DNA from: an uncultured Polyangiales bacterium
GTDB lineage: Bacteria; Myxococcota_A; Polyangia; Polyangiales; GCA-016699535
Direction: 5' to 3'
Length of the DNA: 64,000 nt
Assembly (NCBI GenBank): GCA_964640175.1
Contig: CAZXFW010000002.1
Span: 70,257 to 134,256, forward strand
Shown here one piece after another: positions 7,426-42,805 of the stretch. The notes under the pieces are model-generated. The model was not told where the DNA came from. It made no database searches and saw only the letters and a list, made by a program, of their open reading frames with translations. A program made the translations under genes and the position numbers. The first letter of the stretch is position 1. Each line of letters starts with the position of its first letter.

Positions 7426-7448
7426 ATGAAGTTGTTTGTTACGTGAGA

Positions 7449-8741: not shown

Positions 8742-8798
8742 CAGATGGTGTCACGTCAACGCGAAATATTCAGAGGGCAGATCCAGCGCAATGGCACG

Positions 8799-9980: not shown

Positions 9981-10006
9981 GGACGCGGAGCTTACACTAC
10001 AACGTG

Positions 10007-11427: not shown

Positions 11428-11430
11428 GCA

Positions 11431-26802: not shown

Positions 26803-27101
26803 CCCCCTGTACCTACCGAACCCTGAGCCTAAGGTCCAGGAAAACCGTAATCTTCGGATCTACAGGACAACGAAACGCCTTGCCACCAGGCGTATCCGCA
26901 ACAGCAACCTTCTAAGCCAACCCCACCAAGTTGACAGAATCCATGGCAATTTGCTCCCAAACGCACTAAAGAGCAACCTCGCATCAACGTTACGGCCTGA
27001 ATTTCTTACTTGCCCATCGCAGGCAGGTCCCGTAGCGTGTCGCCCGATCGAATTAATACGCGGGGCCCCGGGCCGCGCGAATGTACGCAAACGAGGAAGC
27101 T

Positions 27102-27767
27102 ATGAACATTCAAGAACGCATGACCGCTTTCGCGATGCTAGGGGCCAGCTGGGTGATGTGGCTATTGGTTGGCCTCTCTGTCATATGCCTTGCGGTGGTG
27201 ATTGAACGCGGGTTGTTTTTATGGACCTGCCGCGACAACATCGCAAAACTCAAGACGGATCTTTTCGATCGCCTTAAACAAGGAGATCTCAACGGAGCCA
27301 AACAGCGCCTGGGGTTTTCGAAATCTTTTGAAGCTCGGATCGTCAATGCAGGATTGGAATCCTCCGAATCTGGAGCTGCTTCCGCAGAAGAACGCATGGC
27401 AGGCGAATCGATTTCCGCCAAATTGCAAATGGAACGTTACCTGGCCTTTCTCGGCACGGTAGGCAACAATGCACCGTTTGTCGGACTGCTAGGCACCGTC
27501 ATTGGCGTCATTCGAGCATTTCAATCCCTTGAACACAGTTCAGGGCAGGTCTCTGAAGGCCTGATGACAGAAATCGGAGAAGCATTGGTTGCTACCGCCA
27601 TCGGAATTTTGGTCGCATTGCCTGCAGTCGCGTTTTATAACTACTTTCAACGCTTGGTAAAAACCAGGCTGTCCCAAGCAGATTCGCTGGGTCGCGAAGT
27701 GCTCGCTTACCTGAAAGCCCAACCCAAAGCAGCCACCTTGTCATCTCGGCCCACGATTGTGGAGTAA
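27102..27767 (+). CDS. exbB: MotA/TolQ/ExbB family proton-channel protein
   Basis: Three TM segments. Contains 'LGTVGNNAPFVGLLGTVIGVIRAF' and 'EALVATAIGILVALPAVAFYNYF'. Start at the ATG preceded by GAGGAAG. The ORF track starts at 27081. Confidence 0.88.
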   Translation: MNIQERMTAFAMLGASWVMWLLVGLSVICLAVVIERGLFLWTCRDNIAKLKTDLFDRLKQGDLNGAKQRLGFSKSFEARIVNAGLESSESGAASAEERMAGESISAKLQMERYLAFLGTVGNNAPFVGLLGTVIGVIRAFQSLEHSSGQVSEGLMTEIGEALVATAIGILVALPAVAFYNYFQRLVKTRLSQADSLGREVLAYLKAQPKAATLSSRPTIVE

Positions 27768-27769
27768 CC

Positions 27770-28192
27770 ATGGCTGCGACTTCCGGAAATTCAGGCGACG
27801 ACGAGCTCATTACAGCCATCAACGTCACACCGTTGGTGGATATCGTCCTGGTACTCCTTATCATCCTCATGGTGACCGCTAGCTACATCGTATCGCAAAC
27901 CATTCCCATGGAATTGCCTACCGCCAAAACTGGAGAGGCAATCGCCAGCACCCAGATTTCCCTATCCATTGATCAGCAAGGAGCGTTTTACATCAACGGA
28001 CAGCCCGTGTCTGATCAAGACCTACGCAAACGCGCCCATGAACTGGTCCAATCGGCCAAAGAGCCGCGTGCGATCATCGCCGCACACGGCAAAACGACTC
28101 ACGCAAGAGTTGTGCAGGCCATCGATATCTTGCGGCAAGAAAAGGTCACAAAGTTCGCCATTAATGTGCGTCCCGAAGACCTCGCCAAATGA
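27770..28192 (+). CDS. exbD: ExbD/TolR family biopolymer transport protein
   Basis: 140 aa. 'INVTPLVDIVLVLLIILMV' carries the conserved Asp in the TM segment. Lies 2 nt after exbB. Confidence 0.88.
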   Translation: MAATSGNSGDDELITAINVTPLVDIVLVLLIILMVTASYIVSQTIPMELPTAKTGEAIASTQISLSIDQQGAFYINGQPVSDQDLRKRAHELVQSAKEPRAIIAAHGKTTHARVVQAIDILRQEKVTKFAINVRPEDLAK

Positions 28193-28195
28193 TGG

Positions 28196-28930
28196 ATGAC
28201 ATTGTCCCGCGGACCTCTGCTAACCTGGGCCTGGCCCATTTTAACAAGCTTGGCACTGCACGGCTTGGTTTTGGTGGGGGCTGTTTCCCTTGCGAAAGGC
28301 GTATCTTCTCGCGCACCTGCCGAAACATCGATCGCCATCAAAGTAGTCGACATGCCGTTTGGTACAGAAGCGGAAGCTGCACTATTTGAACCACCTGCAC
28401 CGGCGGCTTCTTCTCCTAAACAAACAGACACCGCACCCTCTGCTCGGCCTGTGTCGCCAGCACCCTCTCCCAATGCAAGTGACACCATCGTAGATTTGAA
28501 AGATGTCGTGCTAAGCAATCCAGGCGCTTCCGTTCCCTCCAATGTGCCAACCCAGTCCAACACGTCTTCAGGCGCCGGTACGACGCCGGGCTCAGGGCGT
28601 GCCGTTGGCCTCCCTACTGGGGTGGTCGGCGTACCAAGCCTATCTCGCAGACCACAACCTCTAAGTGACATTCGCGCTGATCTTGAGCGTAATTATCCTA
28701 GAAAGGCGCAAGCTATGGGCATCGAAGGTTCAGCCCAGGTACGGCTTCGCGTGCTACCCGATGGAAAACCCACACAACTCACACTAAGCACCCAAACAGG
28801 CCAGCATGGGTTCGGCGAAGCTTGCATCAAAACACTACAACGCTCTCGTTGGAGCCCGCCACTGGATCGAAAAGGCACCCCCGTAGCGACGGATATTATC
28901 TTTACATGTGTCTTTGAAATCCGTTACTAG
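28196..28930 (+). CDS. tonB: TonB family energy-transducer protein
   Basis: 244 aa. N-terminal TM, Pro/Ala/Ser-rich linker, and a C-terminal TonB_C domain ('YPRKAQAMGIEGSAQVRLRVLPDGKP...CIKTL...WSPPLDRKGTPVAT'). Confidence 0.82.
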   Translation: MTLSRGPLLTWAWPILTSLALHGLVLVGAVSLAKGVSSRAPAETSIAIKVVDMPFGTEAEAALFEPPAPAASSPKQTDTAPSARPVSPAPSPNASDTIVDLKDVVLSNPGASVPSNVPTQSNTSSGAGTTPGSGRAVGLPTGVVGVPSLSRRPQPLSDIRADLERNYPRKAQAMGIEGSAQVRLRVLPDGKPTQLTLSTQTGQHGFGEACIKTLQRSRWSPPLDRKGTPVATDIIFTCVFEIRY

Positions 28931-28936
28931 GTCCGT

Positions 28937-29554
28937 ATGCTCTCGTGGCGTCGTGTAGTTAATAAACCGACCACCGTCGTTGTCGTTGGCATCGCCACCC
29001 TGTCCTTTTTTGGCTTGGGATGTCAGCCTAAAAAGCTGCCAGGAGAGCCGATTGGGATCTACCACGTTGTAGGCACGCTGGTTGATAACGAATGTGGTTC
29101 CCAGGCAGTGCCTGCAGAAAACCCATTGGTATTTCGAGTAGAGCTCCGGGCTGATGGCGAAAAAGCCTATTGGCACCGTGCCGATCTGCCTGTGGTCTCA
29201 GGCATACTCATCCCTTCTACGGGACGCTTCCTCTTTAGTGCACAAAGCGTCTGGACTGCCATTGCTGCCGATCCCAACCTTGACTACCCCGGCTGTACCC
29301 TCAATCAGCAGGACACCATTGAAGGCACCTTAGAGGCTTCCGATGAGTCATCCGAGGACGTGCAGGACGATGCAGGGAGCGATGCCGGACTCGATACCGA
29401 CGAATGGACAGGCACAGAACGCATTGAAATGACCCCAGCGGCAGGATCCAACTGCTTGCCTGCGCTCATCACCGCCGGAGGTGGCTTTCAATCCCTGCCT
29501 TGCAGTATCAACTATGATCTGTTAGGGACCCTGCTCCCTGAATCGGGCGGGTAG
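28937..29554 (+). CDS. hypothetical lipoprotein (last gene of the exbBD-tonB operon)
   Basis: 205 aa. Lipobox FGLGC and an acidic C-terminal patch. Lies 6 nt after tonB. Its stop codon sits inside the tRNA-Val gene. Confidence 0.55.
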   Translation: MLSWRRVVNKPTTVVVVGIATLSFFGLGCQPKKLPGEPIGIYHVVGTLVDNECGSQAVPAENPLVFRVELRADGEKAYWHRADLPVVSGILIPSTGRFLFSAQSVWTAIAADPNLDYPGCTLNQQDTIEGTLEASDESSEDVQDDAGSDAGLDTDEWTGTERIEMTPAAGSNCLPALITAGGGFQSLPCSINYDLLGTLLPESGG

Positions 29555-29616
29555 CTCAGTGGTAGAGCGTCGGCCTTACAAGCCGAAAGTCGTGGGTTCA
29601 ATCCCCACCCCGCCCA
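29545..29616 (+). tRNA. tRNA-Val (anticodon TAC)
   Basis: Hand-folded cloverleaf of 72 nt. Acceptor GGGCGGG/CCCGCCC. D arm GCTC-AGTGGTA-GAGC. Anticodon arm TCGGC-CTTACAA-GCCGA. T arm GTGGG-TTCAATC-CCCAC. Discriminator A. CCA is not encoded. Confidence 0.9.
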
Positions 29617-29668
29617 CAAGAAAGCCGCTCCCGGCATCACCGATCACGCCTCGTGACCACTCAACTGC

Positions 29669-31030
29669 CTAAAAGAACACGCGTGAGCCGAGCCATGCTT
29701 CAAACTTTTGATATTTGGCCGGGTCCAACATCACCGCCGCGCCCGAACCCGCATTCACAAAGTAGTCGAAGTCCGTCAAAATCGAGCTATAACCCAGCGA
29801 CGCAGTAAAGCCGAGCCAGTTCCTCACGCGATATTCACCGTACAAGCGAGCGCTTAGACGAAGGTCATCACGACGCGCTTGTGTGCCTAACAAAGCACCA
29901 TCAGGATTCAATCCAAGGCCGTAGTTGTACGTCCCGACATCGGCTTCAATCCCCAAAAGAAATGCCCTGGCTAACAAAAGCTCTGCTCGCGTATAGCCCC
30001 GGTCTCGTCGATAAAAATTACCCATGAACGAGTTGAAGTAATCCCGGTCATACCCTAAGGAAAGTTCCGTTTGCTCGTGCGGTTTCCAACGGAGTTCCGC
30101 CATGGCAATAAGCCCGTCGTAATCGTCTGCGACGTCATAGAAACCGACGGCATAACCTCCAAACACACTAAACGAAAGCTGTTGAGTCAACGCGCCGTTT
30201 AACCCTAAACGTGAGTGAAACTGTTGGTCATCGACCAAGAGGCTTGTTGCAGAAGGGTGGCCGGTGTTGGTGTAATCCACCAAGCCCAACGTGGTCTCAT
30301 AGACCAGCGCGGTTTCAGGCAAAAAGCGCCACGCCACACGGCCCAACACGGTGTGTTGCAAGTTATTGCCGAAAATAAACACATCGTCTTCGAACAAATC
30401 AAACCCAAAACTGTACCCAAGCGTGCCCACAAGCACCTCTCCGCGTGACGAGAGAGACGCTTCCATGCCTACAACGTTTCTATCTCGTCCAAAGTTATAG
30501 GGGTTGGTACCTCGCACCGCCTGCGTAAACGGTCGGACGCTTCGCGAAAACTCATCGTACAAACGCAACGAAAACGTCCGCTTGGGATTAACTTGCAGGT
30601 TAAGCTTGGCCCCTGCGGACATGTTGTCCTGCGCCTCATCCACAAAATAGTGATACAAAGACCCTGTAAGAGCTGTTTCAAACACAAACCGCGGAAGCTC
30701 ATCGGCCTCGGCTTCTTTCATACGCTCTTCGCCCAACGTGGAAAGTATCAAGTGTGGAGAAACTCTTAGAATCGCACTCGCCTGTGGATCGGCCTCTTGA
30801 TAATAAACGTTGGAATCCCAACCTCCTTCGATGCCAATGCCGGGATGAAGTTCTAGATCTCCAACGCGCAATCCAGAGCCTTGCCTTCGGTCTCGATTAT
30901 CCATCCAGCCGGGGGATTCGTTCCACGCTCCGAACGCACCCTGCGCCTTTGCAGAAGACGCCACGACGCCCAGCATCATCAAGATGCACGTAAAATAACC
31001 GTATAGCGCGCAACGGCAGAAATGAGACAT
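29669..31030 (-). CDS. outer-membrane beta-barrel protein (GltH/NfsH position of the Glt/Nfs-like operon)
   Basis: 453 aa. Signal peptide ending AKAQG. Alternating beta-strand pattern throughout, an N-terminal 'LHPGIGIEGGWDSNVYY' block and a C-terminal aromatic residue ('GSRVFF'). Confidence 0.7.
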   Translation of the reverse strand: MSHFCRCALYGYFTCILMMLGVVASSAKAQGAFGAWNESPGWMDNRDRRQGSGLRVGDLELHPGIGIEGGWDSNVYYQEADPQASAILRVSPHLILSTLGEERMKEAEADELPRFVFETALTGSLYHYFVDEAQDNMSAGAKLNLQVNPKRTFSLRLYDEFSRSVRPFTQAVRGTNPYNFGRDRNVVGMEASLSSRGEVLVGTLGYSFGFDLFEDDVFIFGNNLQHTVLGRVAWRFLPETALVYETTLGLVDYTNTGHPSATSLLVDDQQFHSRLGLNGALTQQLSFSVFGGYAVGFYDVADDYDGLIAMAELRWKPHEQTELSLGYDRDYFNSFMGNFYRRDRGYTRAELLLARAFLLGIEADVGTYNYGLGLNPDGALLGTQARRDDLRLSARLYGEYRVRNWLGFTASLGYSSILTDFDYFVNAGSGAAVMLDPAKYQKFEAWLGSRVFF

Positions 31031-31058
31031 CCAACGCGACTTCCTTGCTTAAGGCTTC

Positions 31059-31075
31059 GCGGGTCTCAGACCCGC
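31059..31075. other. perfect 7-bp stem / 3-nt loop hairpin in the 198-bp gap upstream of the OM-barrel gene
   Basis: GCGGGTC-TCA-GACCCGC read directly. It lies 29 nt upstream of the ATG at 31030. No U-tract on either strand. Confidence 0.3.
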
Positions 31076-31228
31076 ACCGTGACCCTCTGTACCAAAACTT
31101 CGGCACAAAAGCGATATCTTTGTGGAATTAGCTGCTTCAAGACCCAGCTAAGCTGGAAAGGCCATCCATCGCAGGGCAACCCCAAGGGGCGGTACGATAT
31201 CGTTTGGGGACTTTGAGGCCCTGCGCGA

Positions 31229-31831
31229 TCACTCAATGGGGCTACTTGGCGGCGGCACCATAGGAATACTGGGCATGTCGGGAAAAGCGGGCCTGCCCGC
31301 ATTCTCACGGGGAGTTTTCGCATCAACCGTCATGACTACCTTGGTCTTGCCAGTTTCATACAAGTCTTGGCCCACGCACTGCCCTGCCTCTTGCTGAAGC
31401 ACGTTAAATTTCCGGCCAAGCACACCCAACACGGTGGCCTCATGCACTTGCCGATCGGAGTCTTTGGTTTGAATCGCCTGACGCAAGGCCCCCAAGTGTT
31501 GCTCTGCGTTGTTGGAATTCACATTGGCCTGCGTCAGCTTATCTTCAAGGCATGTCATTTGAATCACGTCCTTGGCTTGACGAGATTGATCTAACAAATT
31601 GGATACATTATGAGACAACTGCTTGCCTTGCTTGGCCACCTGCTTTCCTAAGGCAAGCTTACCTTCTGGCGTCGGAGGAACGGGCATGGCCTGCTCTGCG
31701 GTAAGATCTGCCAGCGTGCTCTCGTTGCCCCCCGTGCCTTGTTGGGCATAGACGAGGCTCCCCGCGCCTATGAACACACCCGCTCCCAACATACTCGCCA
31801 GCACGTAATGCGTGTGTGATTGCCTCGTCAT
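31229..31831 (-). CDS. hypothetical secreted helical protein with Pro-rich tail
   Basis: 200 aa. Signal/TM (VLASMLGAGVFIGAGSLVYAQQ), a helical middle and a C-terminal 'PSIPMVPPPSSP'. No family recognised. Confidence 0.5.
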   Translation of the reverse strand: MTRQSHTHYVLASMLGAGVFIGAGSLVYAQQGTGGNESTLADLTAEQAMPVPPTPEGKLALGKQVAKQGKQLSHNVSNLLDQSRQAKDVIQMTCLEDKLTQANVNSNNAEQHLGALRQAIQTKDSDRQVHEATVLGVLGRKFNVLQQEAGQCVGQDLYETGKTKVVMTVDAKTPRENAGRPAFPDMPSIPMVPPPSSPIE

Positions 31832-31885
31832 AGATACACTCCTATGGACTAGTGTACCCTGAACACGTTATTTTTCCAAACCCGT

Positions 31886-33358
31886 TCAATTTTGAGGCTC
31901 AAACACGAATGGATAACGGAAATTGACGCTGCCACCCTCAGGGCCTGGATTAAAACGAAACCGTGAAATTACGCCGACCACACAACTGGCCACCGCAGCA
32001 TCTCCGGTAGAGTTTTCAACTGCTTTGGCCCCTGAAACACTCCCGCTTTCTTGAATGGTGAACTCCACGGACACCTTGCCTGAAAGTGTTGGGTTGCGAC
32101 GGAGCTCTCGTTCGTAACAACTCTTGATTTGGCCTAGCCGTTTTCGAATCTCACGCGCCACTAACTGCGAATCAAAATCACCTGAGCCGCCGATGTCGCC
32201 GCCACTGCCGACGCTGGTCATGCCCGTGACACGTCGCTCCACCACAGCGCCGCCTTCGCCTTGTTGAGCAGTGGCGCCGTCACCACCCGCTCGGGCCAAT
32301 CCACCTAGCCCCCCTACGCCACTGCCCTGACCGCCACCCGAACGAGTGCGTAACACACCGCCCGAAGCCCCATTGGCCACACCGACACCTTGAGCCTGCG
32401 CCAAGACATCTTCTGCATTGCCTACGGGCACGCCACCTCGAAGCACATCGGCAAAAGCCCCTCCCAACTCGCCCGAGCTAAGTGCACCCAACAAGAGCTG
32501 TTCTGCAGCTTGCGAAGCCTCTTCGACAATACGTGCTTGGGTTTCAGCAGAAGACTCTCCACGATCTTTGGCCGGCCCAGGCGAGTCCTCTTTTTTGGAT
32601 TGCTTTGGTTGGGGCTTTGCTTCTTCCGCAGCCTCTTTCCCTTTATCAGTAGCCTCTTCGGTAGATTCTTTGGTTTCTGGTTCGGGTGGCGCTTCAAAAA
32701 TTAAACGCGCAGCCAGCGAATTGGGATCGAAATCCATCCCTTTATCCAATGGCCAATCGGCATTCTCCAAATAGACCACAAAGCCAAAATGACTCATGAA
32801 TGAAAGCAACAAAAACGCGGTAAATACCCAATCGATACTTTTGATAACCCCACTTTGCGCTGCCGAAGGAAGTTGAGGACGAGGCGCCACCGGGGGTTTA
32901 GCGACAAACTGAAACAACAAGGTCGTATCCCCAATGACAATTTTACCCCGAGAATTATCGTTAAGCTTAATCTGCCACACCTGTCCTGATTGCCGCGCCG
33001 CACCGGTGGAACGCAGTTCTTCCAATTCCTTGACGCCCTCTGGCATGCCTACGCGGCCATGCATTTCAGGTGTGAAATTCAAAATATAGTCGTCACCTAC
33101 CAATTGGAACACTTCAAACTTGGACGACAGCCCTTGTGCAAATACGACAAAGGTGGCGCGCTCTGAGGTGCCCACTGACACTGTCTCGCGTTTCATCATG
33201 ACACGCTCTTCGACGATCTTCCCATTCTGGATCACGCCAATGCGCAACACTCTGCCGCCGGCTGGCTTGTAGTCCACCGCGGCCATCGCCCTGGTCATGG
33301 CCCCCGGTGGGGTCCCTTGACCGCGAGTAGGTTTTGGATCCTTTGATTGCTCGCTCAT
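31886..33358 (-). CDS. GltG/GltJ (PglI/AgmX)-like bitopic protein with TonB-like AgmX/PglI C-terminal domain
   Basis: 490 aa. Cytoplasmic beta-rich N-domain (aa ~35-155), a single TM (aa ~177-196), a charged then Gly-rich low-complexity linker, and a C-terminal 'IKSCYERELRRNPTLSGKVSVEFTIQESGSV...VASCVVGVISRFRFNPGPEGGSVNFRYPFVFEP'. Confidence 0.75.
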   Translation of the reverse strand: MSEQSKDPKPTRGQGTPPGAMTRAMAAVDYKPAGGRVLRIGVIQNGKIVEERVMMKRETVSVGTSERATFVVFAQGLSSKFEVFQLVGDDYILNFTPEMHGRVGMPEGVKELEELRSTGAARQSGQVWQIKLNDNSRGKIVIGDTTLLFQFVAKPPVAPRPQLPSAAQSGVIKSIDWVFTAFLLLSFMSHFGFVVYLENADWPLDKGMDFDPNSLAARLIFEAPPEPETKESTEEATDKGKEAAEEAKPQPKQSKKEDSPGPAKDRGESSAETQARIVEEASQAAEQLLLGALSSGELGGAFADVLRGGVPVGNAEDVLAQAQGVGVANGASGGVLRTRSGGGQGSGVGGLGGLARAGGDGATAQQGEGGAVVERRVTGMTSVGSGGDIGGSGDFDSQLVAREIRKRLGQIKSCYERELRRNPTLSGKVSVEFTIQESGSVSGAKAVENSTGDAAVASCVVGVISRFRFNPGPEGGSVNFRYPFVFEPQN

Positions 33359-33439
33359 GATCTGCGCCTATACACGCCCGTCGAACCCTACCACAAGTCC
33401 ATGGCGCTTCTCAAAAACCCTCAGCATCCTTTATTTAGT

Positions 33440-33877
33440 TCATACAGAAGCATGTTCTTTCACGCCATGCCGTTGCACGGCATGCAATTTTCGCTGGGCC
33501 TCCCGACGCAGCCAAGCCCATGAAAAAAGCCCAACGGCCGCGCTGCCCACTCCCCAGCCCATCGCATGAAATGCGTGCTGAAGATTCTCGCGTTGCTGCG
33601 TTACCATGACAGCGGAACTACGGGGGTTGCCCTGCAACCCCAATGCATGCGCCAAATCCAACATCGCTATCAACATTCCCAGGGTCATCGCCACACTTGG
33701 CAAGATCCGTAATGGGTAAAGCCCTCTGGCTAACTGCCGTTGCATGAAAAGCACGTCATCGTGTGCCATCGGCGAACCCATGTCGAGGCGCCTGATTTGG
33801 CTATATTTTGCACCAATGAGCATGACGATCGTTAGCGCGAGAAACCACTGCACGTATGACAAAAGCACCATCATCAC
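33440..33877 (-). CDS. hypothetical small integral membrane protein (3 predicted TM)
   Basis: 145 aa. Hydrophobic segments 'VQWFLALTIVMLIGA', 'ILPSVAMTLGMLIAMLDLAHAL' and 'GWGVGSAAVGLFSWAW'. No family recognised. Confidence 0.5.
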   Translation of the reverse strand: MMMVLLSYVQWFLALTIVMLIGAKYSQIRRLDMGSPMAHDDVLFMQRQLARGLYPLRILPSVAMTLGMLIAMLDLAHALGLQGNPRSSAVMVTQQRENLQHAFHAMGWGVGSAAVGLFSWAWLRREAQRKLHAVQRHGVKEHASV

Positions 33878-33913
33878 TAAGCTTGCCCCAATCTAAATAC
33901 ACCTAGTCAGAAT

Positions 33914-34195
33914 TTAGAAAGGCTCTCGTTGAACGCTCTGGACCACGTCCCTTACAAAACTTGTGCGCAGTTCAAGCACTTCATAGCCAAGGTTAGAGCG
34001 GTTTAAAATGTAAAACGCATTGGGTTTTTGGACGCGGCCTTCGATGCGAATTTCTTCAAGCTGGATAACTCGAGGCTTTCCGGTACGTTTGGTCTGCTGA
34101 GCCTGGCTTTTTGGAGAACCACCAAGCCACATCAGCATACAAAGGCCAAGCGCCGCATGCCATGAGCTCCCCCTCTGAGACTGTCGTGACCTCAT
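33914..34195 (-). CDS. hypothetical small secreted protein (GltF/NfsF position)
   Basis: 93 aa. Signal (ALGLCMLMWLGGSPKSQAQ), then 'VIQLEEIRIEGRVQKPNAFYILNRS'. Its start overlaps the stop of the upstream TPR lipoprotein gene by 4 nt. Confidence 0.55.
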   Translation of the reverse strand: MRSRQSQRGSSWHAALGLCMLMWLGGSPKSQAQQTKRTGKPRVIQLEEIRIEGRVQKPNAFYILNRSNLGYEVLELRTSFVRDVVQSVQREPF

Positions 34196-35541
34196 TGCCC
34201 CTCCTGCTTACTCGCCGCATTCCGTGCTTCGCGTTCCAAGCGACGTTTTTCACGTTGGATCTGGCGATCAAGATCCTCCAAGTAGCTCTGCGATAAGTCG
34301 TTCTTAGCGAGTCTACCCCCCTTCATCGCACGGTAAGCCCCAAACTCCTGCACGGCCTTCTCTAATGCTTGCAATGTCGTCACGCCTTTTAATCCTGTAC
34401 CTACGCTCATGTATAATAACCCAAGATTAAAATGCGCTTCTGGAAGGTCTGTTTTTAAAGACAAGGCCTTTTCAAATGCTTGACGGGCTTGATCCCATTG
34501 GCGCAAAGCTCGATAGGCATCGCCCAAGTTAAGTAAAAGCTCTGGCTCCGGTGGCAACAAATGACGCGCTACCTCAAACTGCTTAAGCGCCTCGCTGTGG
34601 TTACCGCCTGATAGCAGGTGGATCCCAAGCGCCACCCGCGCTTCAGCATAGTCGGGACGCGCTTCAATGGCTTTGCGATAAAAGTCCATCGCTTCTGCCA
34701 AATGGTTTTGCTCGGCATACAGTTTGGCTCTTAAATACAGTGCTTCCGGTTGCTTAGGATCAATTTTCAACGCCTGCTCAAGAATGGATTCACATAGCTC
34801 AACTCGTTTGCGCGCCATGCTTGCTTTCGCGATCGCCAACATGGCAGGCACATACGTTTCATCCCGGCGAAGCGCTGCAATGGCAACTTCTTCCGCCTGA
34901 TCCAAGCGATTGGCCTGAATCAGCGCATGGCTGTAAACCACCTGTAGCCGAAGATTGCGCTCCCATTTTTTGGCAAGCTCACCCACAATGGAAAGCGCTT
35001 CTTGGATGTTACCGCGACGTGCATAGACAGTCAGAATGCCCGCCGCGGCTTTTTCATAATCGGGCTGAATCCTCAACGCCTGGTGATAATGCTCTAAGGC
35101 ACGGTCGCTATTGCCTGCGCGGTCTGCAAGCAGTCCCAAGTGATACGCCGCTTGGTACGCATTGGGGTCAGCGTCCAATGCCTGCCGGAAATCCTGGGCA
35201 GCTTGTTCATCCTGAAACTCCGACATCGCTGAAAGCCCTCGTTGAAACGATTGTGCCGCTGCACTGTTCATGACCTTGCGCTCAGGCAACGGAGCCCCTC
35301 GCTGATCGTCTGGACTTCCCCATGGCGAACCGGCAGTTCCTGAACTGGAATCTGCCGAGGACAGTGTTGTCGTGATCAACCCTTCCGTATCCGTGCTGCG
35401 CTCAGCAGACGTTTCGCCTCCTGCGCTAGTGCCGCTACCCGTGGAACGTTCTTCAGAAACTGGAGTGGTTGGCTCTGATTCAGAGCCACATGCTGCTAGC
35501 CCCACCCATATTGCGCCCACAAGGGCTATTCGGGAAGTCAT
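34192..35541 (-). CDS. TPR-repeat lipoprotein, GltE/AglT/NfsE-like
   Basis: 449 aa. Lipobox GLAACGS, a Ser/Thr/Gly-rich linker, about 8 TPR units ('AYHLGLLADRAGN...ALEHYHQALRIQPDYEKA', etc.) and a basic coiled C-tail. Confidence 0.7.
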   Translation of the reverse strand: MTSRIALVGAIWVGLAACGSESEPTTPVSEERSTGSGTSAGGETSAERSTDTEGLITTTLSSADSSSGTAGSPWGSPDDQRGAPLPERKVMNSAAAQSFQRGLSAMSEFQDEQAAQDFRQALDADPNAYQAAYHLGLLADRAGNSDRALEHYHQALRIQPDYEKAAAGILTVYARRGNIQEALSIVGELAKKWERNLRLQVVYSHALIQANRLDQAEEVAIAALRRDETYVPAMLAIAKASMARKRVELCESILEQALKIDPKQPEALYLRAKLYAEQNHLAEAMDFYRKAIEARPDYAEARVALGIHLLSGGNHSEALKQFEVARHLLPPEPELLLNLGDAYRALRQWDQARQAFEKALSLKTDLPEAHFNLGLLYMSVGTGLKGVTTLQALEKAVQEFGAYRAMKGGRLAKNDLSQSYLEDLDRQIQREKRRLEREARNAASKQEGQ

Positions 35542-38500
35542 GGCTCTACCTCCATCGCCGGCAACGCCGTACCACTTGGCAAAGGCAGCGTCTGGCCACG
35601 CGGCACCCGTGTAAATTCGCCCGATTGGTAGGCTCCAAACGTGGGATCTTGTTTTGTGGCCTGCTCAATACACTCACCAATGCGTTCATCGCCATAAGCC
35701 TGCAATCGATCGACAGCAACACGTGTGTACTCGGTATCCATACTGCCTGCACGTGCCGCACGCGCAGCCAATGCGTACCGTGACACTGCCAAGCATTCGA
35801 TGGCACGAACCTGCTCATCGAGCACCTGCCGCACCCTGTCCTCGATCTGCACGCGCATGTCTTCTTTGGCAACCGGATCTAACCGCTTAAGTTGAGCATT
35901 GATGTCCTTCGGCATGACAAATGGCATATTGAGTACGGCCTTTGCCAATACTTCATAAATGCGACCTTGACGAACATAGGCCGCAATAGTCCATTTGGGT
36001 CGGCCATATGCCGGGATGGGATCATACCCCGCTGCAAGGGCTGTCGCTTGTTTTGATCCTTGACCGATCTGCTGACTGATCTCTTTCTTGATATAGGCTT
36101 CCATGGTCGCCGGGTGCCCCGCCTTGATCGTAAAACTCTCAAAAGACTCACTGCTGTCATCTACTAGCAAGAACTTGCTTTCAGCCGCATACTCCGCCGC
36201 CGCAGACCCTCGAGCCTGGTTTGTACTGGCAAACGCATCGACAACATCCTGCAAGGCCGCATGGTATTCTTTGCCGCGAGTGCCTTTTGCCTTCTGAGAC
36301 TCAGCGATGCGCCAATACGCTTGAACAATTACGCTTCCTGCTTTGGAATCCTGCTTATAACGTTTGATAAAGTCACGCATTTCGCGGATCGCAAGATTCC
36401 AGTTCTCTTGTTTATATGCCATCTCGGCAACACGGTAGTGCGCTGCACGCTTGTCTTCTTCATCCACAATGGTATCTGCGGCACGTTTGTAATATTCAGC
36501 CGCTGCCGCATATTGTTGCTGATATTCCAAAATACGTGCTGCGTTGATTAGTGCATCCTCACGGCGCTCACGCACAGATGGCTCCGTGGATTTCAAAAAC
36601 CGTTCCGAATCTGCCAACGCACGGTAACTGCCTACCGCTCTACCAAAATCAAAGAAACGATTGGCATTGTATGCTTGGCGAAAATAGGCGTTCGAAAGAA
36701 TGGCATCCAGACGTTTTTGTTCTTCTTCGTCTTTGGCAGCCCGAGAACCCACTTCGTCAATAATTCGAGCATACAAACGCGCCGCAGACTCAAAGCGACT
36801 CGTACGCTCCAGTGCCACTGCAGCTTTTTCAAGCGCAAGCGGGGCCTGAGCATGCGTTGGCTCATCATTCACAGCTTCCACAAGCATCGTTGCGGCTTCT
36901 TCATAAAGGCGCCGCTGTTCTTGACCAGAACTTTTTTCCGCATCATCAAACACTTGCACAGCTTTTTGATAACGAATGTTACTAAGCTGTACCGTTGCGA
37001 CACATTGCGGCTCTTCCGCATTGGCAGGCTTCGTGCAATCGACCGAAGCTCTTGCCACTGCTGTTCCAGAAGCAAACGTGCACCGTCGCTTTTGAAGATC
37101 TCGACTCAGACGTTCCACCTCGTCGGTCTGATTAAGAGACACCGCCATGTTGTTAAGATTAAACCATGCAACACGCCCCGTCTCATCCGCATCGCTTCCA
37201 CTACAGTTATCATTATAAATCCGAGCAAACCGCTCACGCGCATGCGGCCAATACCCATACACATACAACAACAAGGCATTGTTATAATCGTAAGAATCCC
37301 GAAGGCTTTCCGTATCGTGCTCTTTATCTACACGCGCCAGGTAAACTTCTCGCGCCTGTGCCAACCGCTGTAAAAGCACTGGCATCGGCAGAGGCGTTAC
37401 CTGACGCGGATTACCCTGCGGAGAGGGCGGTTCAGTCCGAATGGCCAAACGATTTGCTTCAGCCTCCCGATCGACGATGCGCTTGAGCGACTCCACCACA
37501 CGTCGCGCTGCTTCCGAAAGATGTGTGTCATCAAGATTTGAATCGCGTACCGCCGCATAGGTCTCGGCAGCTTGTTCATACTGCCCAGACCAATAAAGCG
37601 CCTCAGCCCAATTGTAATGAAGATCGTAGGCCTGAGGACTGTTAGGATTTTTTTCGATATATAGCTTGTAGGCATTTGCGGCAGAGCCATACGCAAGCTG
37701 AGCTTCTTGGCAAAGCTCGGGCTTTTCATCCTGGACACAACGTCGACGAAGATTTTGTGCATACTGATGGTGTTGGATAGCAGAGCTGATAAGGGCATCT
37801 TGCGCAAGTTGCTCTGCCTCACGTTGCTCACGTGGATGATCCATGTTGGCATTCCACCAAGAAGTCCCTTCTCGATACAGCTCTCCCAACTTGGCACGGG
37901 CTAACAAGGCATCGTCGAGCTGATTGTTCTGAACACGCGCAAGCGCTATCTTGTTTTGAATCTCGGGAGCACGGTAATGATTGGGAAACCGTTTGAGCGC
38001 AAGCTCCCAGGCAGCGACGGCTTGAGGAAATTTCGCCTCATCAAAGTACACGGTGCCTAACTGAAAATACACTTCAGGCGTCCATTCTCGATCCTGCGGA
38101 AGAATGCTTGCGGTCTGAATACGTTCTATGCCTGTAGGTAGGCCTTCCTGGGGATCAGCGACCTGATTTTCATTCCAATCGTCATACGCAAGCGTAATGC
38201 CTAAATATTGAATCGCTTCCTCTCGGAGTTCAGTGCCTGCCTTACCCGTCCGCTTCTTTTCATCGTCTGACCATTGCACAAGCAATGCAAAGTGCTGAAT
38301 GGACTCTGCATAATGGCTAGCCCGATAATAAGACCAGGCCAACTTATATAAAGCGAGATTATAAACGCGGTCCTCAGGGTAGTTAAGAATCTTAGCATAC
38401 GCGCTGATCGCATGCGCTAACGCGTCATCTGCGTAATCAAAATCAAAATGGTATTCTCCCACGCGAAGCCACGTTTCAGCATAAAAATCCTTCGATTCAA

Positions 38501-39404
38501 CCACGGGCTTACATGCTGCATAGGGGTCGCGGATCGGCGCTGCAGGCTGCGCCGTCACCAGTCCCAACGCTGGATGCTTTTCTAATGCTTCATCCGCTTT
38601 ATCTTCCGCTAAGATTTTCGATGCATCGCGACGAAAATCAAATCGATTGCCGCATACCAAACTCAGCCATGCAACGCGCGCAGCCTCAAAATTGCCTTCC
38701 TCATTAAGGCAGTATCCTATGAGATAGTAAACCCCGGCGATACGCTCATAGTCGGGAAACCGTTCAATCAGTGTTTTGTACAAACCAATCGTATCACTGT
38801 AATTTTTTTCCGGATCGTCGAGGCTCTTTGTTGTTTCACCCGCGGTTTGACGTCTATCGTTTTCCTCATTCACCCGTTCCACGTGTGCCTGATACGCCAA
38901 GGCGCTTCGCTCAAAATAGAGCTCCCCTAAACGAAATATCGCATCGGGCGTAAATCGCGGGTCATTGGGATACTCAGCGATAAACCGCTCAAACAATGCG
39001 ATAGCTTTTTGCCGAGCTTTGTCCTCTAAGTCTTCTTCAACACGAATCCTACGAGCAAATGCTTCATCCCTGGTTCGTCGTTGACGTTGATAATCACGCC
39101 TCACCACCGAAAGGACGCTAGAACGGTAGGCTCCACCGATGGACGAAAACCTCCCCACCTCTGCTTCCATTTCACGTAACGCTGCAACTTGTTCTTCTGT
39201 CGGAGGTTTTTGATCGTCTTTGACACGTGTGTCTTGCACCTGCAAAAACTCAGGAAGGGTTCCCGTTGCCTTAACGTCTTTTTGCCCACTCCACGGCAAT
39301 GGATCCTTCTTCTCAGGCTCAGACCATGCCGTATCTGGCAACAACACTGCTGCCAGGCACGCCGTCCCTGCGAGGTACATGAGGTGTCGCCACGACATTC
39401 TCAC
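35538..39404 (-). CDS. giant periplasmic TPR protein, GltD/AgmU/NfsD-like
   Basis: 1288 aa. Signal peptide (LAGTACLAAVLLPDTAWSE). YbgF/CpoB-type TPR units run along the whole length ('AIALFERFIAEYPNDPRFTPDAIFRLGELYF', etc.). GTG start overlaps the upstream stop (GTGA). Confidence 0.72.
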   Translation of the reverse strand: MRMSWRHLMYLAGTACLAAVLLPDTAWSEPEKKDPLPWSGQKDVKATGTLPEFLQVQDTRVKDDQKPPTEEQVAALREMEAEVGRFSSIGGAYRSSVLSVVRRDYQRQRRTRDEAFARRIRVEEDLEDKARQKAIALFERFIAEYPNDPRFTPDAIFRLGELYFERSALAYQAHVERVNEENDRRQTAGETTKSLDDPEKNYSDTIGLYKTLIERFPDYERIAGVYYLIGYCLNEEGNFEAARVAWLSLVCGNRFDFRRDASKILAEDKADEALEKHPALGLVTAQPAAPIRDPYAACKPVVESKDFYAETWLRVGEYHFDFDYADDALAHAISAYAKILNYPEDRVYNLALYKLAWSYYRASHYAESIQHFALLVQWSDDEKKRTGKAGTELREEAIQYLGITLAYDDWNENQVADPQEGLPTGIERIQTASILPQDREWTPEVYFQLGTVYFDEAKFPQAVAAWELALKRFPNHYRAPEIQNKIALARVQNNQLDDALLARAKLGELYREGTSWWNANMDHPREQREAEQLAQDALISSAIQHHQYAQNLRRRCVQDEKPELCQEAQLAYGSAANAYKLYIEKNPNSPQAYDLHYNWAEALYWSGQYEQAAETYAAVRDSNLDDTHLSEAARRVVESLKRIVDREAEANRLAIRTEPPSPQGNPRQVTPLPMPVLLQRLAQAREVYLARVDKEHDTESLRDSYDYNNALLLYVYGYWPHARERFARIYNDNCSGSDADETGRVAWFNLNNMAVSLNQTDEVERLSRDLQKRRCTFASGTAVARASVDCTKPANAEEPQCVATVQLSNIRYQKAVQVFDDAEKSSGQEQRRLYEEAATMLVEAVNDEPTHAQAPLALEKAAVALERTSRFESAARLYARIIDEVGSRAAKDEEEQKRLDAILSNAYFRQAYNANRFFDFGRAVGSYRALADSERFLKSTEPSVRERREDALINAARILEYQQQYAAAAEYYKRAADTIVDEEDKRAAHYRVAEMAYKQENWNLAIREMRDFIKRYKQDSKAGSVIVQAYWRIAESQKAKGTRGKEYHAALQDVVDAFASTNQARGSAAAEYAAESKFLLVDDSSESFESFTIKAGHPATMEAYIKKEISQQIGQGSKQATALAAGYDPIPAYGRPKWTIAAYVRQGRIYEVLAKAVLNMPFVMPKDINAQLKRLDPVAKEDMRVQIEDRVRQVLDEQVRAIECLAVSRYALAARAARAGSMDTEYTRVAVDRLQAYGDERIGECIEQATKQDPTFGAYQSGEFTRVPRGQTLPLPSGTALPAMEVEP

Positions 39405-41785
39405 GGCACCCCCTCCTCTTCCTTCGCTGAGCTCTCGCCCTCATCCATAATCTCTCGAAAATCGTCGTCCAAAGATTGAATTTCCCTCGCCCGATCCGTC
39501 GTCAGCGCTTCTACCTGCAACCTATGTTCCTCTCGAATTGCCCAAGCTAAATCGATTTTTCCAACATCAGAGCGCAACACAAGATCGTGAAACCGTTTCT
39601 GCAAATGGCGGAAACTTGCAAACGCCACATCACCGACTGTTCCACGCGCCTCTGTGCCAAGCTCTGCTATCTGGGCATGGTATTCTTCAAGCTTTCCAAT
39701 TTCTTCTCCCACTTTGCGCAGCATGTCATCCGCTCGCTCTTTGGCCGCGACATCCACTGTCGCATCGTAGCGATCGAGTCCCTGCTCAATAGCCTCTGCC
39801 CGTTGCAACAATTGGCTTACGCGTGGATTGACCTTAGCTCCCGACTGAGCCAGCAACACGCCCTCACGTTGAACAAGCTTTCGGTACGCATTGCGGTTAT
39901 CTTGATCGCGCTGATAACGCGCATCATCCATACCGACCCGCAACTTGGCTTGTTCAATGACTGACCGGAATGCAGTGATCTGCCGCTCATACTCGGCGAC
40001 ACGCTGTTCTTGCTGTTGCAACTCAGTCGCCATCGCAGCGCGGCGTGACTCGTTCTCAATCAACTCTTTGGGTGGCCTTTTGGCAATCGTACGCAGCGCC
40101 GCTAGCCTGGCATGAATCCCAGAAATCTCCACTTCCAATTCCTTCAGCGTTCTCAAAAGCGCCGAATAACTATTACGAGCAACATGCTCTCTTTCATCGA
40201 GAGCTTCCTGGCTCTGAGGAATGTGCCGAAGCAAGGCCTCCAAGCGTGCTCGTTCGGAACGAATGCCCACGATTTCCGACTGAGCGCTTGAAATCCGCTG
40301 ATAAGAACCTGCCACTTTAACACGCACCCTGTGAAGCCGATTGTGAAGCAATACACTTTGTTCACGAAGCAATCGCAGATCCGCAAAAATATTAACGCGA
40401 TTTTCGGCCTGCAATGCCCCGTGCAAGCGCTCCACAAGCCGTTCCATTTCTTTTAATGCTTGATTGGATTCATTAAAATCTTCAATAACCCCGAACGCTC
40501 GTTTCATGTTGTCGTCAGGCTCAGCCCACAACAACGCTTTTTGTGGAATAAAGGTGTGCAGCTCAAGCGCGTCGAGGTTTTCTTGTACCAAGTTATGGAA
40601 ATACGCCCTTGGATCCTCATGACGCTCAATGACAGCCTGAAGTTGCTTACTCACAGGATGGATCGCCGCAATGACATCGCCGAATATCTTTTCAGATTCC
40701 CTAAATCTTCCATCCCGAAGCAACAGATTGCCCCGCAAGAGTTTCGCATCCGGAATGTAGCGGCTTTGAGGTGCTGCCAACGCAAGCACTTCCAAAGCCC
40801 TCTCCGCTCGTAAGCCATCCCCTTGTCGAATGTATACCCACGCGACTTCATACAATGCCGTGTCAAAATATTGAGACGTACGTGGCACCGATTGGTATGC
40901 ACGCGCCGCACTGTTGAGCTTAACGGTCTCATAATAAATCCGTCCCAACGATAGGAACGCGAGATCACGAACAGCCTGCGCCTTGTTGGCACCGCTTTGC
41001 GGTTTCGTGGCTTTCTCAAACGCCTTAACTGCATTTGAATAATCACCTCTCAAGGTAAAAATCACCCCCATAAAATAATCCGCGTGGGGGCGATAACTGC
41101 TTTTTAAAGGAACCGCATTAAACGCAGCTTGCGCCTGGTTTAGCTCAGCGTCATTGCGAATCAACGCGGAGCCTTTAAAATCATCCGCGGACACCGACAG
41201 ATCAGGCTCAACCACTCGATTGTAAAGATACTTGGCCTTCAAATACAACGTTGCCGCTTCGATTTTTGAGGGAGGAATTTGGTTGAGTTTGTCGAAATAC
41301 GCTTCAACCCCTCGAAAGTCACGCGCACGTAATGCAATATCAATGAGACGTCCCAGCGCACGTTGAACAAAAGGTTGATAGGCTTGTTGTTCGCTGTGTT
41401 CCAATATCTGACGAAACCGCGTACGTGCTCCGTAAATATCACCAGCGTTGTACAGCGCCTCACCAAGCAGCATCAACGCACTCGGATACGCTCGATGCGT
41501 CGGATAAGACTCCACAATATCCGTCAGAATAACGCTAGCACGCATGTAATCCTTGAGACGGTAAAACAGTTCACCGTCCGCAAGGCGCTCTTCGACATAG
41601 GTAGGCCCTTTTAATTTTTGCGTTCGCAGCGGCTGATTGCGCAAACGAAACGCACGGCTATCGATGTCGACAAGCTCACGCTCCGACGCATCCAGATTTT
41701 GAGCAACCGCTGAAGACACCCCGACCAACATCGCGGTGGCGAGCAAGCTCAGCAGCAGCCAACGACGCGGCTGCCCGTCCACCAT
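39401..41785 (-). CDS. exported TPR + long coiled-coil protein (GltC/NfsC position)
   Basis: 794 aa. Signal (LLSLLATAMLVGVSSAVAQ), an N-terminal ~420 aa of TPR units, and a C-terminal ~350 aa heptad-rich coiled coil with an acidic tail. Confidence 0.6.
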   Translation of the reverse strand: MVDGQPRRWLLLSLLATAMLVGVSSAVAQNLDASERELVDIDSRAFRLRNQPLRTQKLKGPTYVEERLADGELFYRLKDYMRASVILTDIVESYPTHRAYPSALMLLGEALYNAGDIYGARTRFRQILEHSEQQAYQPFVQRALGRLIDIALRARDFRGVEAYFDKLNQIPPSKIEAATLYLKAKYLYNRVVEPDLSVSADDFKGSALIRNDAELNQAQAAFNAVPLKSSYRPHADYFMGVIFTLRGDYSNAVKAFEKATKPQSGANKAQAVRDLAFLSLGRIYYETVKLNSAARAYQSVPRTSQYFDTALYEVAWVYIRQGDGLRAERALEVLALAAPQSRYIPDAKLLRGNLLLRDGRFRESEKIFGDVIAAIHPVSKQLQAVIERHEDPRAYFHNLVQENLDALELHTFIPQKALLWAEPDDNMKRAFGVIEDFNESNQALKEMERLVERLHGALQAENRVNIFADLRLLREQSVLLHNRLHRVRVKVAGSYQRISSAQSEIVGIRSERARLEALLRHIPQSQEALDEREHVARNSYSALLRTLKELEVEISGIHARLAALRTIAKRPPKELIENESRRAAMATELQQQEQRVAEYERQITAFRSVIEQAKLRVGMDDARYQRDQDNRNAYRKLVQREGVLLAQSGAKVNPRVSQLLQRAEAIEQGLDRYDATVDVAAKERADDMLRKVGEEIGKLEEYHAQIAELGTEARGTVGDVAFASFRHLQKRFHDLVLRSDVGKIDLAWAIREEHRLQVEALTTDRAREIQSLDDDFREIMDEGESSAKEEEGVP

Positions 41786-42645
41786 CAGTCCGCTCCTCGG
41801 CCCTCAGGCCCCTGCGCACCACGTCGTGCGGATGTGACTTTTTCCGTAAACCGGATGGCAGGACGATCCTGCAACGGGGCCGTGGGGCCGCCTTTTTCAT
41901 AGGCAATCACGCGCACGGAAATGCCTTTGCCTTCAGGCGCCGTGAACGTGTGATTGGAACGAACTTTGAAGCGGTAACCTTTTAAATAGGAAAACACGCC
42001 AAAGCCGTAACCTTGGTATTCAAGATTGACCGTTAAGGTGTGTTCCCCAGGCACGATACTGCCGTAATACACATCCACGGCTTCCTGTTCTCCTAACGAG
42101 CCTTCTTCATCCGCCTTGGAAAAGATCGGAGCCCCATCCAACGCGTAAACGGCCTTGACCAGTCGATACGACGAGGACATGTGGTTTTCATGGGTAATCA
42201 CTGCTTGTGATCCTGCAACCACGCCCTGCAACACCGTTTCCGCCAATAGCGACAGCCGTGCCTTGGACCGAAAAATCTGTTCCTTAAGCTCGTTGATGCG
42301 TTGCTCCAGATCCCGCAATTTAACCGCATAGGTGCTTGCGTTCATTTCTACGGCGGTCGGAACCGCGCTGTCTTTGCCTGGCTCTGGCGTCGCCGCCTTG
42401 GAAGACGTTGTCGTCTCGCTGGATGCACTTGGCACTGACGTGGAGTCAGCGGCAGCAGCGGGCGCGCTTGGGTCACTCGGCGTGCTCGGTGCACCCGAGG
42501 TGCTCGGCTTAGTCGGGCTTGCCTTACTCGGCGTACTCGGCTCCGGGCTCTGCGCCAACACCACGCCATGCATCGCCAATAACCCGGTGAGCCACAGCCA
42601 CAGGATCCCGTGTTTGTACAACCCGCCTACCGGCTTGCCACGCAT
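41785..42645 (-). CDS. hypothetical secreted protein (P/S/T/A linker, short coiled coil, beta-rich C-domain); first gene of the operon
   Basis: 286 aa. Signal (ILWLWLTGLLAMHGVVLAQ), a low-complexity 'PSTPSKASPTKPSTSGAPSTPSDPSAPAAA' stretch, and 'LRDLEQRINELKEQIFRSKARL'. Its stop overlaps the next start by 1 nt (TGATG). Confidence 0.55.
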   Translation of the reverse strand: MRGKPVGGLYKHGILWLWLTGLLAMHGVVLAQSPEPSTPSKASPTKPSTSGAPSTPSDPSAPAAAADSTSVPSASSETTTSSKAATPEPGKDSAVPTAVEMNASTYAVKLRDLEQRINELKEQIFRSKARLSLLAETVLQGVVAGSQAVITHENHMSSSYRLVKAVYALDGAPIFSKADEEGSLGEQEAVDVYYGSIVPGEHTLTVNLEYQGYGFGVFSYLKGYRFKVRSNHTFTAPEGKGISVRVIAYEKGGPTAPLQDRPAIRFTEKVTSARRGAQGPEGRGAD

Positions 42646-42683
42646 TAAACCATCGCCTTTCTCACGCCTTTTAGGCGCCTCAG

Positions 42684-42711
42684 CTTATACCAAGGGGATC
42701 GATAGGGTCAA
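42684..42711 (-). promoter_or_regulatory. candidate sigma-70-type promoter for the nine-gene operon
   Basis: On the minus strand: TTGACC (42711-42706), a 16-nt spacer, then TATAAG (42689-42684). This sits about 40 nt upstream of the ATG at 42645. Hexamer match by eye only. Confidence 0.3.
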
Positions 42712-42805
42712 CGCAAGAAGACGCGATTCATAAGGACGACACGATCGCCATGGTTTAACCACATACGATCGTCATCGCATTCACAAGCGTGCTATAGAAG
42801 CCTCT

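Follow-up and report, generated by a model that had tools for sequence, protein, structure and literature searches.

In the structural model of the Agl-Glt machine of Myxococcus xanthus, the transmembrane (TM) helix and membrane-proximal domain of GltG dock on the AglR pentamer, the periplasmic part of GltG wraps GltD, and these two proteins serve as attachment sites for GltE, GltC and GltF (PMC11761067); the Agl-Nfs system of the same organism handles the Exo spore-coat polymer (PMC3858216). Luciano et al. (2011; PMC3169522) described the paralogous M. xanthus clusters G3 (Nfs), G4 and G5, and tabulated the G4 products as MXAN_1919 (447 aa), MXAN_1920 (91 aa), MXAN_1921 (490 aa, with tetratricopeptide repeats, TPRs), MXAN_1922 (1111 aa, TPR, a gltD homologue) and MXAN_1923 (809 aa), together with Hoch_6494-6498 of Haliangium ochraceum at 823, 1202, 422, 120 and 490 aa. 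Here we analyse a 64,000-nucleotide stretch of DNA from an uncultured Polyangiales bacterium, referred to throughout as the window, which carries a block of nine genes (g1 to g9) whose closest known relative is G4, not Glt or Nfs, on the basis of that published table of sizes and gene order. The block holds the five-gene core C-D-E-F-G in the same order as G4 and Hoch_6494-6498 and with products of like size (794, 1288, 449, 93 and 490 aa); it also has, as they do, a short GltG-like protein without an N-terminal FHA domain, and no AglRQS in the operon. An initial annotation of the window held that its composition differed from both characterised systems, a claim that does not stand given that a C-D-E-F-G set of such sizes had already been listed. 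We think it likely that the locus combines a G4-type Glt module (g1-g7) with a polysaccharide porin module (g8-g9) in one co-oriented string, and that it serves as a trans-envelope scaffold for the export of a secreted polysaccharide.

The initial annotation had called nine co-oriented genes with overlapping junctions, a tRNA-Val and a convergent exbB-exbD-tonB-lipoprotein operon, and all of these were recovered, the nine minus-strand open reading frames (ORFs) running from 42645 down to 29669 with identical coordinates and lengths. The first five genes are joined by overlaps of 1, 4, 4 and 4 nt, at TGATG (g1/g2), GTGA (g2/g3), ATGA (g3/g4) and ATGA (g4/g5), and are followed by gaps of 36 (g5-g6), 81 (g6-g7), 54 (g7-g8) and 198 nt (g8-g9). 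The protein features called earlier hold as well, including signal-peptide-like N-termini in g1, g2, g3, g5, g8 and g9, TPRs in g2, g3 and g4 (Pfam), the lipobox of g4, the TM segment and C-terminal domain of g7 and the barrel of g9. Homologues of the window proteins are annotated as belonging to Myxococcales, Polyangiales or Sandaracinaceae metagenome-assembled genomes, and an identical locus is present on a Logan contig of an uncultured Myxococcota.

Membership of the Glt/Nfs family, as initially proposed, is borne out by profile matches to GltC, GltE, GltF/CglF and GltG, each on the gene where it would be predicted and with the order preserved. The product of g2 (39401..41785), a 794-aa exported protein with an N-terminal TPR region that gives Pfam TPR matches and a long C-terminal coiled coil, has NCBIfam gliding_GltC as its top match (E=4.5e-27), with residues 65-433 aligned to model positions 118-489, or about 370 residues. 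The 1288-aa exported all-TPR scaffold g3 (35538..39404) occupies the GltD position and matches Pfam TPR and the YbgF/BamD-type TPR models of NCBIfam; no match to a GltD model was found among the NCBIfam scans, and its likeness to GltD lies only in its size (>1000 aa), signal peptide, TPR content and place immediately before the GltE-like gene. The YbgF-type matches might have led to a Tol-Pal interpretation of the block, but they reflect the repeats alone and neither TolB nor Pal was detected, and this interpretation was rejected. The 449-aa TPR lipoprotein g4 (34192..35541; lipobox LAAC) has gliding_GltE as its top match (1.2e-30, 106.8 bits) with PrsT nearly equal (104.4 bits), and the GltE signal is probably largely that of generic TPRs. 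The 93-aa exported protein g5 (33914..34195) matches NCBIfam gliding_CglF (E=3.1e-5), CglF and GltF being one protein (PMC4488436). The best-matched member of the core is the 490-aa bitopic TonB-like protein g7 (31886..33358), which aligns with gliding_GltG over residues 14-488 and model positions 180-647 (E=2.7e-52), carries the AgmX/PglI C-terminal domain (myxo_SS_tail, NF033768) at 95.1 bits against a cut-off of 40, and also matches Pfam TonB_C. Its layout comprises a cytoplasmic domain, a single TM segment (177-197), a low-complexity periplasmic linker and the AgmX/PglI domain; since the alignment takes in the GltG model only from position 180 onward, g7 is without the FHA domain that GltG has at its N-terminus, and its match to GltJ is confined to the common C-domain. 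Distant GltG-like representatives bear only 'TonB family' labels in their clusters. Whole-protein scores for GltC (95 vs 450 bits), GltE (107 vs 225) and GltG (178 vs 650) lie far under the equivalog cut-offs, and g2, g4 and g7 are therefore paralogues, not the gliding proteins themselves.

Comparison with the Agl-Glt and Agl-Nfs machines reveals a common inner part and a different outer one. Common to all are GltC/E/F/G-type proteins, a very large TPR scaffold and, in the inner membrane, a TonB-like protein that ends in an AgmX/PglI C-domain, and the window system, like them, goes back to one that depended on a TolQR-like AglRQS stator; with Nfs it would also share an action on polysaccharide exported through Wza/Wzc. 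Unlike them, it has no detected GltA/B/H/K-type outer-membrane proteins, GltI/J, CglB or AglZ, its outer-membrane part is an 18-stranded Wzp-type porin, the FHA domain of GltG is missing, and there is no functional stator in, or demonstrably with, the operon. Specifically, no block protein matched the models for GltA, GltB, GltH, GltK, GltI or GltJ, the other annotated genes of the window are housekeeping or unrelated, and neither CglB nor AglRQS was detected within the 64 kb. The window differs from G4 itself in the presence of g6, a stator relic between F and G, and of a conserved g1 that is not listed for G4.

The first gene, g1 (41785..42645), encodes a 286-aa exported protein that combines a signal peptide and an S/T/P-rich linker with a coiled coil and a beta-rich C-terminal domain of high conservation. 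No other protein in the block is as well conserved; g1 has 2973 homologues, and its C-terminal ~175 aa are ~80% identical across Myxococcota/Polyangia. No match was found in Pfam, NCBIfam or the PDB, including relaxed Pfam/NCBIfam scans and profile-vs-PDB comparison, and the AlphaFold2 (AF2) model is of low confidence (pLDDT 52). One g1 homologue is mislabelled 'dihydrolipoamide acetyltransferase' in its database entry.

The arrangement is retained well beyond the lineage of the window. We collected 82 related loci, 2 from exact-protein look-ups of homologues and 80 from a species-representative genome scan, all of them from uncultured Myxococcota, and placed the window proteins in them by tblastn; counts are based on the 61 loci with enough upstream sequence and the 61 with enough downstream sequence. 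Conservation as a unit, which the initial annotation had set beforehand as a test that might refute its reading, was observed: C-D-E lie collinear upstream of G in 59 of 61 loci, g1 stands first in the block in 57 of those 59, and g5 was detected in 51 of them. Downstream, g8 is present in 57 of 61 loci and the barrel in 58. In a different species-level genome all of the block is kept at 62-89% identity (41% for g6), and the nine ORFs are intact. The genes g1-g9 are real, and their order is kept in dozens of genomes. Judged by these comparisons, the G4 type appears to be abundant and strongly conserved in uncultured Polyangia.

The outer-membrane end of the locus points away from gliding and toward polysaccharide secretion. 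The 453-aa product of g9 (29669..31030) is modelled by AF2 as a barrel of 18 long strands (pLDDT 86.7, pTM 0.82), and it matches Pfam BBP2_2 (6e-10), with weak matches to EpsL/TIGR03016. Foldseek returned generic large barrels, among which the alginate exporter AlgE was the best match of the same size (template modelling score about 0.5), and a sequence search of the PDB gave no match. Eighteen strands have been reported for WzpX, WzpS and WzpB (PMC9603273), and the predicted fold, the BBP2_2 match and the synteny described below mark g9 as a WzpB-type porin. Immediately upstream, g8 (31229..31831) encodes a helical, exported protein of 200 aa, Pro-rich in its tail, for which no family match was found in Pfam, NCBIfam or profile-vs-PDB searches, relaxed scans included; its synteny and a homologue in Sandaracinus suggest that it is a partner in the porin module. 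A ~190-aa Poly_export/SLBB protein, that is, an outer-membrane polysaccharide export (OPX) protein, is encoded <=600 bp after the barrel on the same strand in 46 of 58 loci. One such OPX (locus L007) matches PDB entry 9n9a ('polysaccharide export protein', 186 aa) at 4.7e-37, and 9n9a is probably, to judge from its length, the WzaB crystal structure of PMC12819527. Wzc-like genes lie nearby in 14 loci and Wzy-like genes in 14.

A contig of the Sandaracinus amylolyticus type separates this module from the Glt-like genes altogether. It groups homologues of g8 and g9 with genes for glycosyltransferases, Wzy_C and an OPX, and glt genes are absent upstream; the g8 homologue (36% identity, 3e-40) stands directly before the barrel and OPX, and the barrel beside the OPX is 43% identical to g9. 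In S. amylolyticus, WzaB is contiguous with the genes for biosurfactant polysaccharide (BPS), by which Islam et al. (2020) tied the orphan M. xanthus WzaB (MXAN_1915) to BPS (PMC7310880). We conclude that g8 and g9 are a separable polysaccharide-export module and are not GltH/NfsH-like; the initial placing of g9 as the GltH/NfsH equivalent is contradicted by an 18-stranded BBP2_2 barrel that is usually followed by a WzaB-like OPX and occurs with g8 in a glt-free cluster. The same association may be read from M. xanthus, where WzpB is MXAN_1916 and WzaB is MXAN_1915 (PMC9603273), a few locus tags, on tag numbering alone, from the G4 gene MXAN_1919, which parallels g8-g9 beside the Glt-like block. 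The resemblance to the class-3 OPX/Wzp translocons (WzaB-WzpB, WzaX-WzpX, WzaS-WzpS; PMC9603273, PMC9601211, PMC12819527) therefore includes a WzpB-sized, 18-stranded BBP2_2 barrel, the g8-barrel-OPX trio in the Sandaracinus polysaccharide cluster and the ~190-aa OPX of relatives, and differs in that the OPX is not adjacent in the window and that a linked Glt-like block is unmentioned in the translocon literature searched. Glt was likewise not mentioned in the polysaccharide literature searched, where any mention of the six tags looked for in MXAN_1917-1923 was confined to Luciano et al. The linkage of G4 with Wzp/Wza appears strongly supported by synteny and, as far as the searchable literature shows, has not been discussed.

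In the relatives the operon continues past the barrel with the OPX, a 75-79-aa protein, an NTP_transf_5 protein and an MshEN-domain protein (L007 13730-15973; L008 13671-15898; and many others). MshEN binds cyclic di-GMP in other systems, and the presence of this gene may point to a second messenger that controls the polysaccharide module.

The question of how such a scaffold might be energised leads to g6 (33440..33877), which encodes a 145-aa membrane protein between F and G. The initial annotation described it as a 3-TM protein, which stands in part: the third TM segment lies under the standard hydropathy threshold and is inferred from family topology, and a divergent homology to MotA/TolQ/ExbB had been missed. 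A profile of 24 g6 orthologues aligned with AglR-like proteins in hhalign at a probability of 96.9% (E=1.6e-10, 183 columns), and the controls were clean (reversed 0.055, shuffled 0.28-0.95). The orthologue in locus L034 scores above the Pfam MotA_ExbB gathering threshold and at 144 bits against a g6 hidden Markov model (HMM), and this HMM also matches AglR-like proteins embedded in other operons and the window's own ExbB. The possibility that g6 is an unrelated 3-TM protein was rejected after the profile comparisons with controls. It is the fastest-evolving gene of the block, with 41% identity to a close relative compared with 62-89% for the others, and members of its family are 27-40% identical to one another. 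These comparisons identify g6 as a shortened and divergent MotA/TolQ/ExbB (AglR-like) relic in the slot that a stator occupies in sister clades.

In 11 of the 82 loci the operon itself includes stator genes, which stand after E (or F) and before G. The two that are annotated, L044 (7874-9908) and L080 (7454-9507), encode one MotA_ExbB and two ExbD/TolR proteins there by Pfam, and the other nine have the same three genes by tblastn. These sister-clade loci are arranged exactly as the 'core complex' of GltC-D-E, AglR-Q-S and GltG that Luciano et al. described in Geobacter and Gammaproteobacteria (PMC3169522); the window clade differs from it in having one AglR-like relic in place of the stator genes and in the addition of g1, a GltF-like protein, g8 and the porin. 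Between clades the embedded AglR-like proteins keep 68-69% identity, while the GltG-like proteins of those clades each reach no more than 34-43% identity to g7; the stators are therefore far more tightly constrained than the other parts of the machine. In a third group (L051-L088) F abuts G and no stator gene was found within 10 kb; M. xanthus G4, judged by its gene sizes, likewise has no stator in the operon. The family thus appears to form a series F-R-Q-S-G, then F-relic-G, then F-G, which would record the repeated loss of a private stator. No AglR/AglQ/AglS-type set (one TolQ-like and two TolR-like proteins) was found in the 64-kb window, where only the g6 relic and a TonB system with a single ExbD are present. 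As the window clade retains only a degenerate AglR-like gene, any energising stator would have to be encoded elsewhere, which may be the case here as it is in M. xanthus.

Taken together with the arrangement of the M. xanthus proteins, these data are consistent with a model in which the TonB-like g7, with or without the AglR-like relic g6, would form an inner-membrane platform that couples a MotA/TolQ-type stator to the TPR scaffold. The periplasmic scaffold would consist of g3 in the GltD position with g4, g2 and g5, and the outer-membrane end of the g9 porin, g8 and an OPX encoded elsewhere, at the end of a Wzx/Wzy-type pathway of the BPS kind. By reaching the polysaccharide translocon the scaffold would assist export, positioning or movement of the polymer, not gliding, as a counterpart to Agl-Nfs with its Exo spore-coat polymer. 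In the ancestral operon a dedicated AglR/Q/S-like stator would have been encoded after E and before G, and in the window lineage the OPX would have been displaced. The homologies, the gene order, the synteny counts and the barrel fold are what the data show; the physical complex, the coupling of energy and the polysaccharide-related function are inferred here by analogy with these systems. A stronger form of the model, in which G4-type complexes are dedicated accessories of class-3 OPX/Wzp secretion of the BPS type, with a stator-driven TonB-like/TPR conveyor that gates, positions or moves polymer at the outer membrane, is more speculative, and we advance it tentatively as somewhat doubtful.

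Several observations weigh against the polysaccharide scaffold. The assignment to G4 rests on the table of sizes and order, and the proximity of G4 to WzpB on tag numbering. On hard and on soft agar, motility was not appreciably altered by a polar insertion in MXAN_1922, with gliding and twitching unaffected (PMC3169522), a result that speaks against an essential role of G4 in the export of BPS by M. xanthus. For g4, the match to GltE barely exceeds those to generic TPR models. The window copy of g6 was by itself not significant in profile comparison, and it is shortened to 145 aa from the ~200 of relatives by deletion of ~55 aa of cytoplasmic loop. No OPX was found within 10 kb of the barrel in 8 relatives, nor anywhere in the 64-kb window; unlike the translocon context of G4, the window has no OPX after the porin, and g9, without a class-3 OPX neighbour, may be orphaned or serve another role here. 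Lastly, with 198 nt before g9, a single transcript is putative.

The initial annotation placed the motor next door, in the operon that converges on the block from the plus strand (27081..29554), and proposed that a Glt/Nfs-type machine of nine genes is powered by the adjacent ExbB-ExbD(-TonB). That operon comprises a MotA_ExbB gene (27081..27767; Pfam 1e-30), an ExbD gene (27770..28192; 2e-30), a TonB_C protein gene (28196..28930; 9e-15) and the gene for a 205-aa putative lipoprotein (28937..29554), for which profile-vs-PDB and relaxed Pfam/NCBIfam scans gave no match. NCBIfam equivalog scores were all under their cut-offs, with TolQ/TolR-like models as top matches, and the set may be of the Tol-like or the Exb-like subtype; a Tol-Pal reading raised by these matches was rejected, as no TolB or Pal follows. 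With one ExbD and its own TonB, the set has the canonical layout of what is most simply a generic, self-contained TonB-type system. The attraction of an adjacent motor is evident, since the two operons converge ~115 bp apart, ExbB and ExbD belong to the AglR/Q/S superfamily, the TonB-like g7 could in principle dock on any ExbB/TolQ pentamer, and the degenerate stator within the operon leaves a need for one acting in trans. The adjacency is also retained in a relative at 78% identity; this relative, however, keeps all the unrelated housekeeping neighbours too, so that the adjacency is uninformative. The window-type exbD, tonB and lipoprotein genes were found by tblastn only in L001-L006, which represent the same or a closely related lineage with all housekeeping neighbours in common, and in 0 of the 82 more distant loci. 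The true linked stators are one MotA-like (AglR) and two TolR-like genes inside the operon, and the window ExbB is just 24-28% identical to the embedded AglR-like proteins. Powering by the adjacent operon is accordingly improbable.

The boundary between the operons bears on how they came to be adjacent. A tRNA-Val(tac) gene (29545..29617, plus strand) separates them, and the lipoprotein ORF ends with its stop codon 10 nt inside the tRNA, overlapping its 5' end. The synteny of relatives (barrel-OPX-NTP_transf_5-MshEN) breaks at this tRNA, and OPX, NTP_transf_5 and MshEN are gone in the window lineage. The tRNA-Val and a convergent TonB operon thus follow the barrel in place of the OPX, which indicates a lineage-specific rearrangement, and the tRNA may be its point. 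Most likely the exbB-exbD-tonB genes are an ordinary TonB system brought alongside by this rearrangement at tRNA-Val, and the operon appears to be a chance neighbour, not part of the machine.

The same losses raise the question of whether the block is decaying in this lineage, with a relic stator, a lost OPX and an orphan porin leaving it non-functional or re-purposed. The shortened g6 (145 aa vs ~200 in relatives), its rapid divergence (41% vs 62-89%) and the missing OPX, NTP_transf_5 and MshEN genes after the barrel are what such decay would produce. Yet none of the nine ORFs is broken and junctions between them are translationally coupled, they are kept at 62-89% identity in a different species-level genome, and the operon lacks a stator in many relatives and, to judge from the lengths of its genes, in M. 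xanthus G4, so that the stator-less operon is a stable state; we regard decay as unlikely. A bona fide gliding (A-motility) apparatus, which the presence of GltC, D, E, F and G homologues and the speculation of Luciano et al. that bacteria with AglRQS and GltA-G may glide (PMC3169522) might recommend, is the least probable reading of all, with equivalog scores of 95/450, 107/225 and 178/650 bits, no GltA, B, H, I, J, K, CglB or AglRQS detected in the 64-kb window, a g7 without the GltG FHA domain, an outer-membrane component that is a polysaccharide-type porin, and an M. xanthus G4 of the same architecture that is dispensable for gliding.

Control of the block in the window appears to differ from that in its relatives. 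The divergent gene upstream of g1 (42646-44224) encodes a sigma-54 response-regulator activator, and in relatives at 55-60% identity (L007, L008) the upstream neighbour is an extracytoplasmic function (ECF) sigma factor. No sigma-54 -24/-12 box was found in the 160-bp intergenic region upstream of g1, and together with the differing neighbour this indicates that regulation appears rewired. A possible sigma-70-type promoter, TTGACC-16-TATAAG (42684..42711, minus strand), was picked out by eye upstream of g1 and is weak; promoter and terminator scans gave counts equal to the shuffled expectation.

Elsewhere in the window, four minus-strand genes (55539-59447) form a gldA/gldF/gldG-like 'gliding-associated' ABC transporter set as in Bacteroidetes, encoding an ABC ATPase (58413-59447), an ABC-2 permease (57667-58416), a GldG-like ABC_transp_aux/DUF7088 protein (56114-57679) and a DUF4340 protein (55539-56135). 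An NADH dehydrogenase operon (7167-13371) encodes NuoA, B, C, D, a NuoG-like protein, H and I, with no NuoE/NuoF between D and G. A 515-aa protein (20663-22210, minus strand) joins ParA/CbiA ATPase signatures with weak DnaJ and HTH_25 matches, an unusual combination, and is adjoined by an LTD-domain protein (22340-23557). For two window proteins encoded in the 50-55 kb region, look-ups of the exact protein found no record.

In sum, the locus is a further member of the already catalogued, uncharacterised G4 type, a recognisable paralogue of a known system whose 'motor next door' appears to be an accident of synteny. Its importance lies in the wider family, of which Glt and Nfs are the only characterised members, and in which G4, G5 and the 'core complex' of non-gliders have been without an assigned function since 2011. 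Across dozens of genomes the locus physically ties the G4 type to an outer-membrane polysaccharide translocon of the WzpB/WzaB type, and this provides a testable hypothesis, that G4-type complexes aid the secretion or surface handling of a BPS-like polymer as Nfs does with the spore-coat polymer. The stepwise loss of the embedded stator bears on how Glt-family machines are energised. If true, the reading of G4-type complexes as polysaccharide accessories would explain what the 'ancestral core' and the orphan Glt paralogues do.

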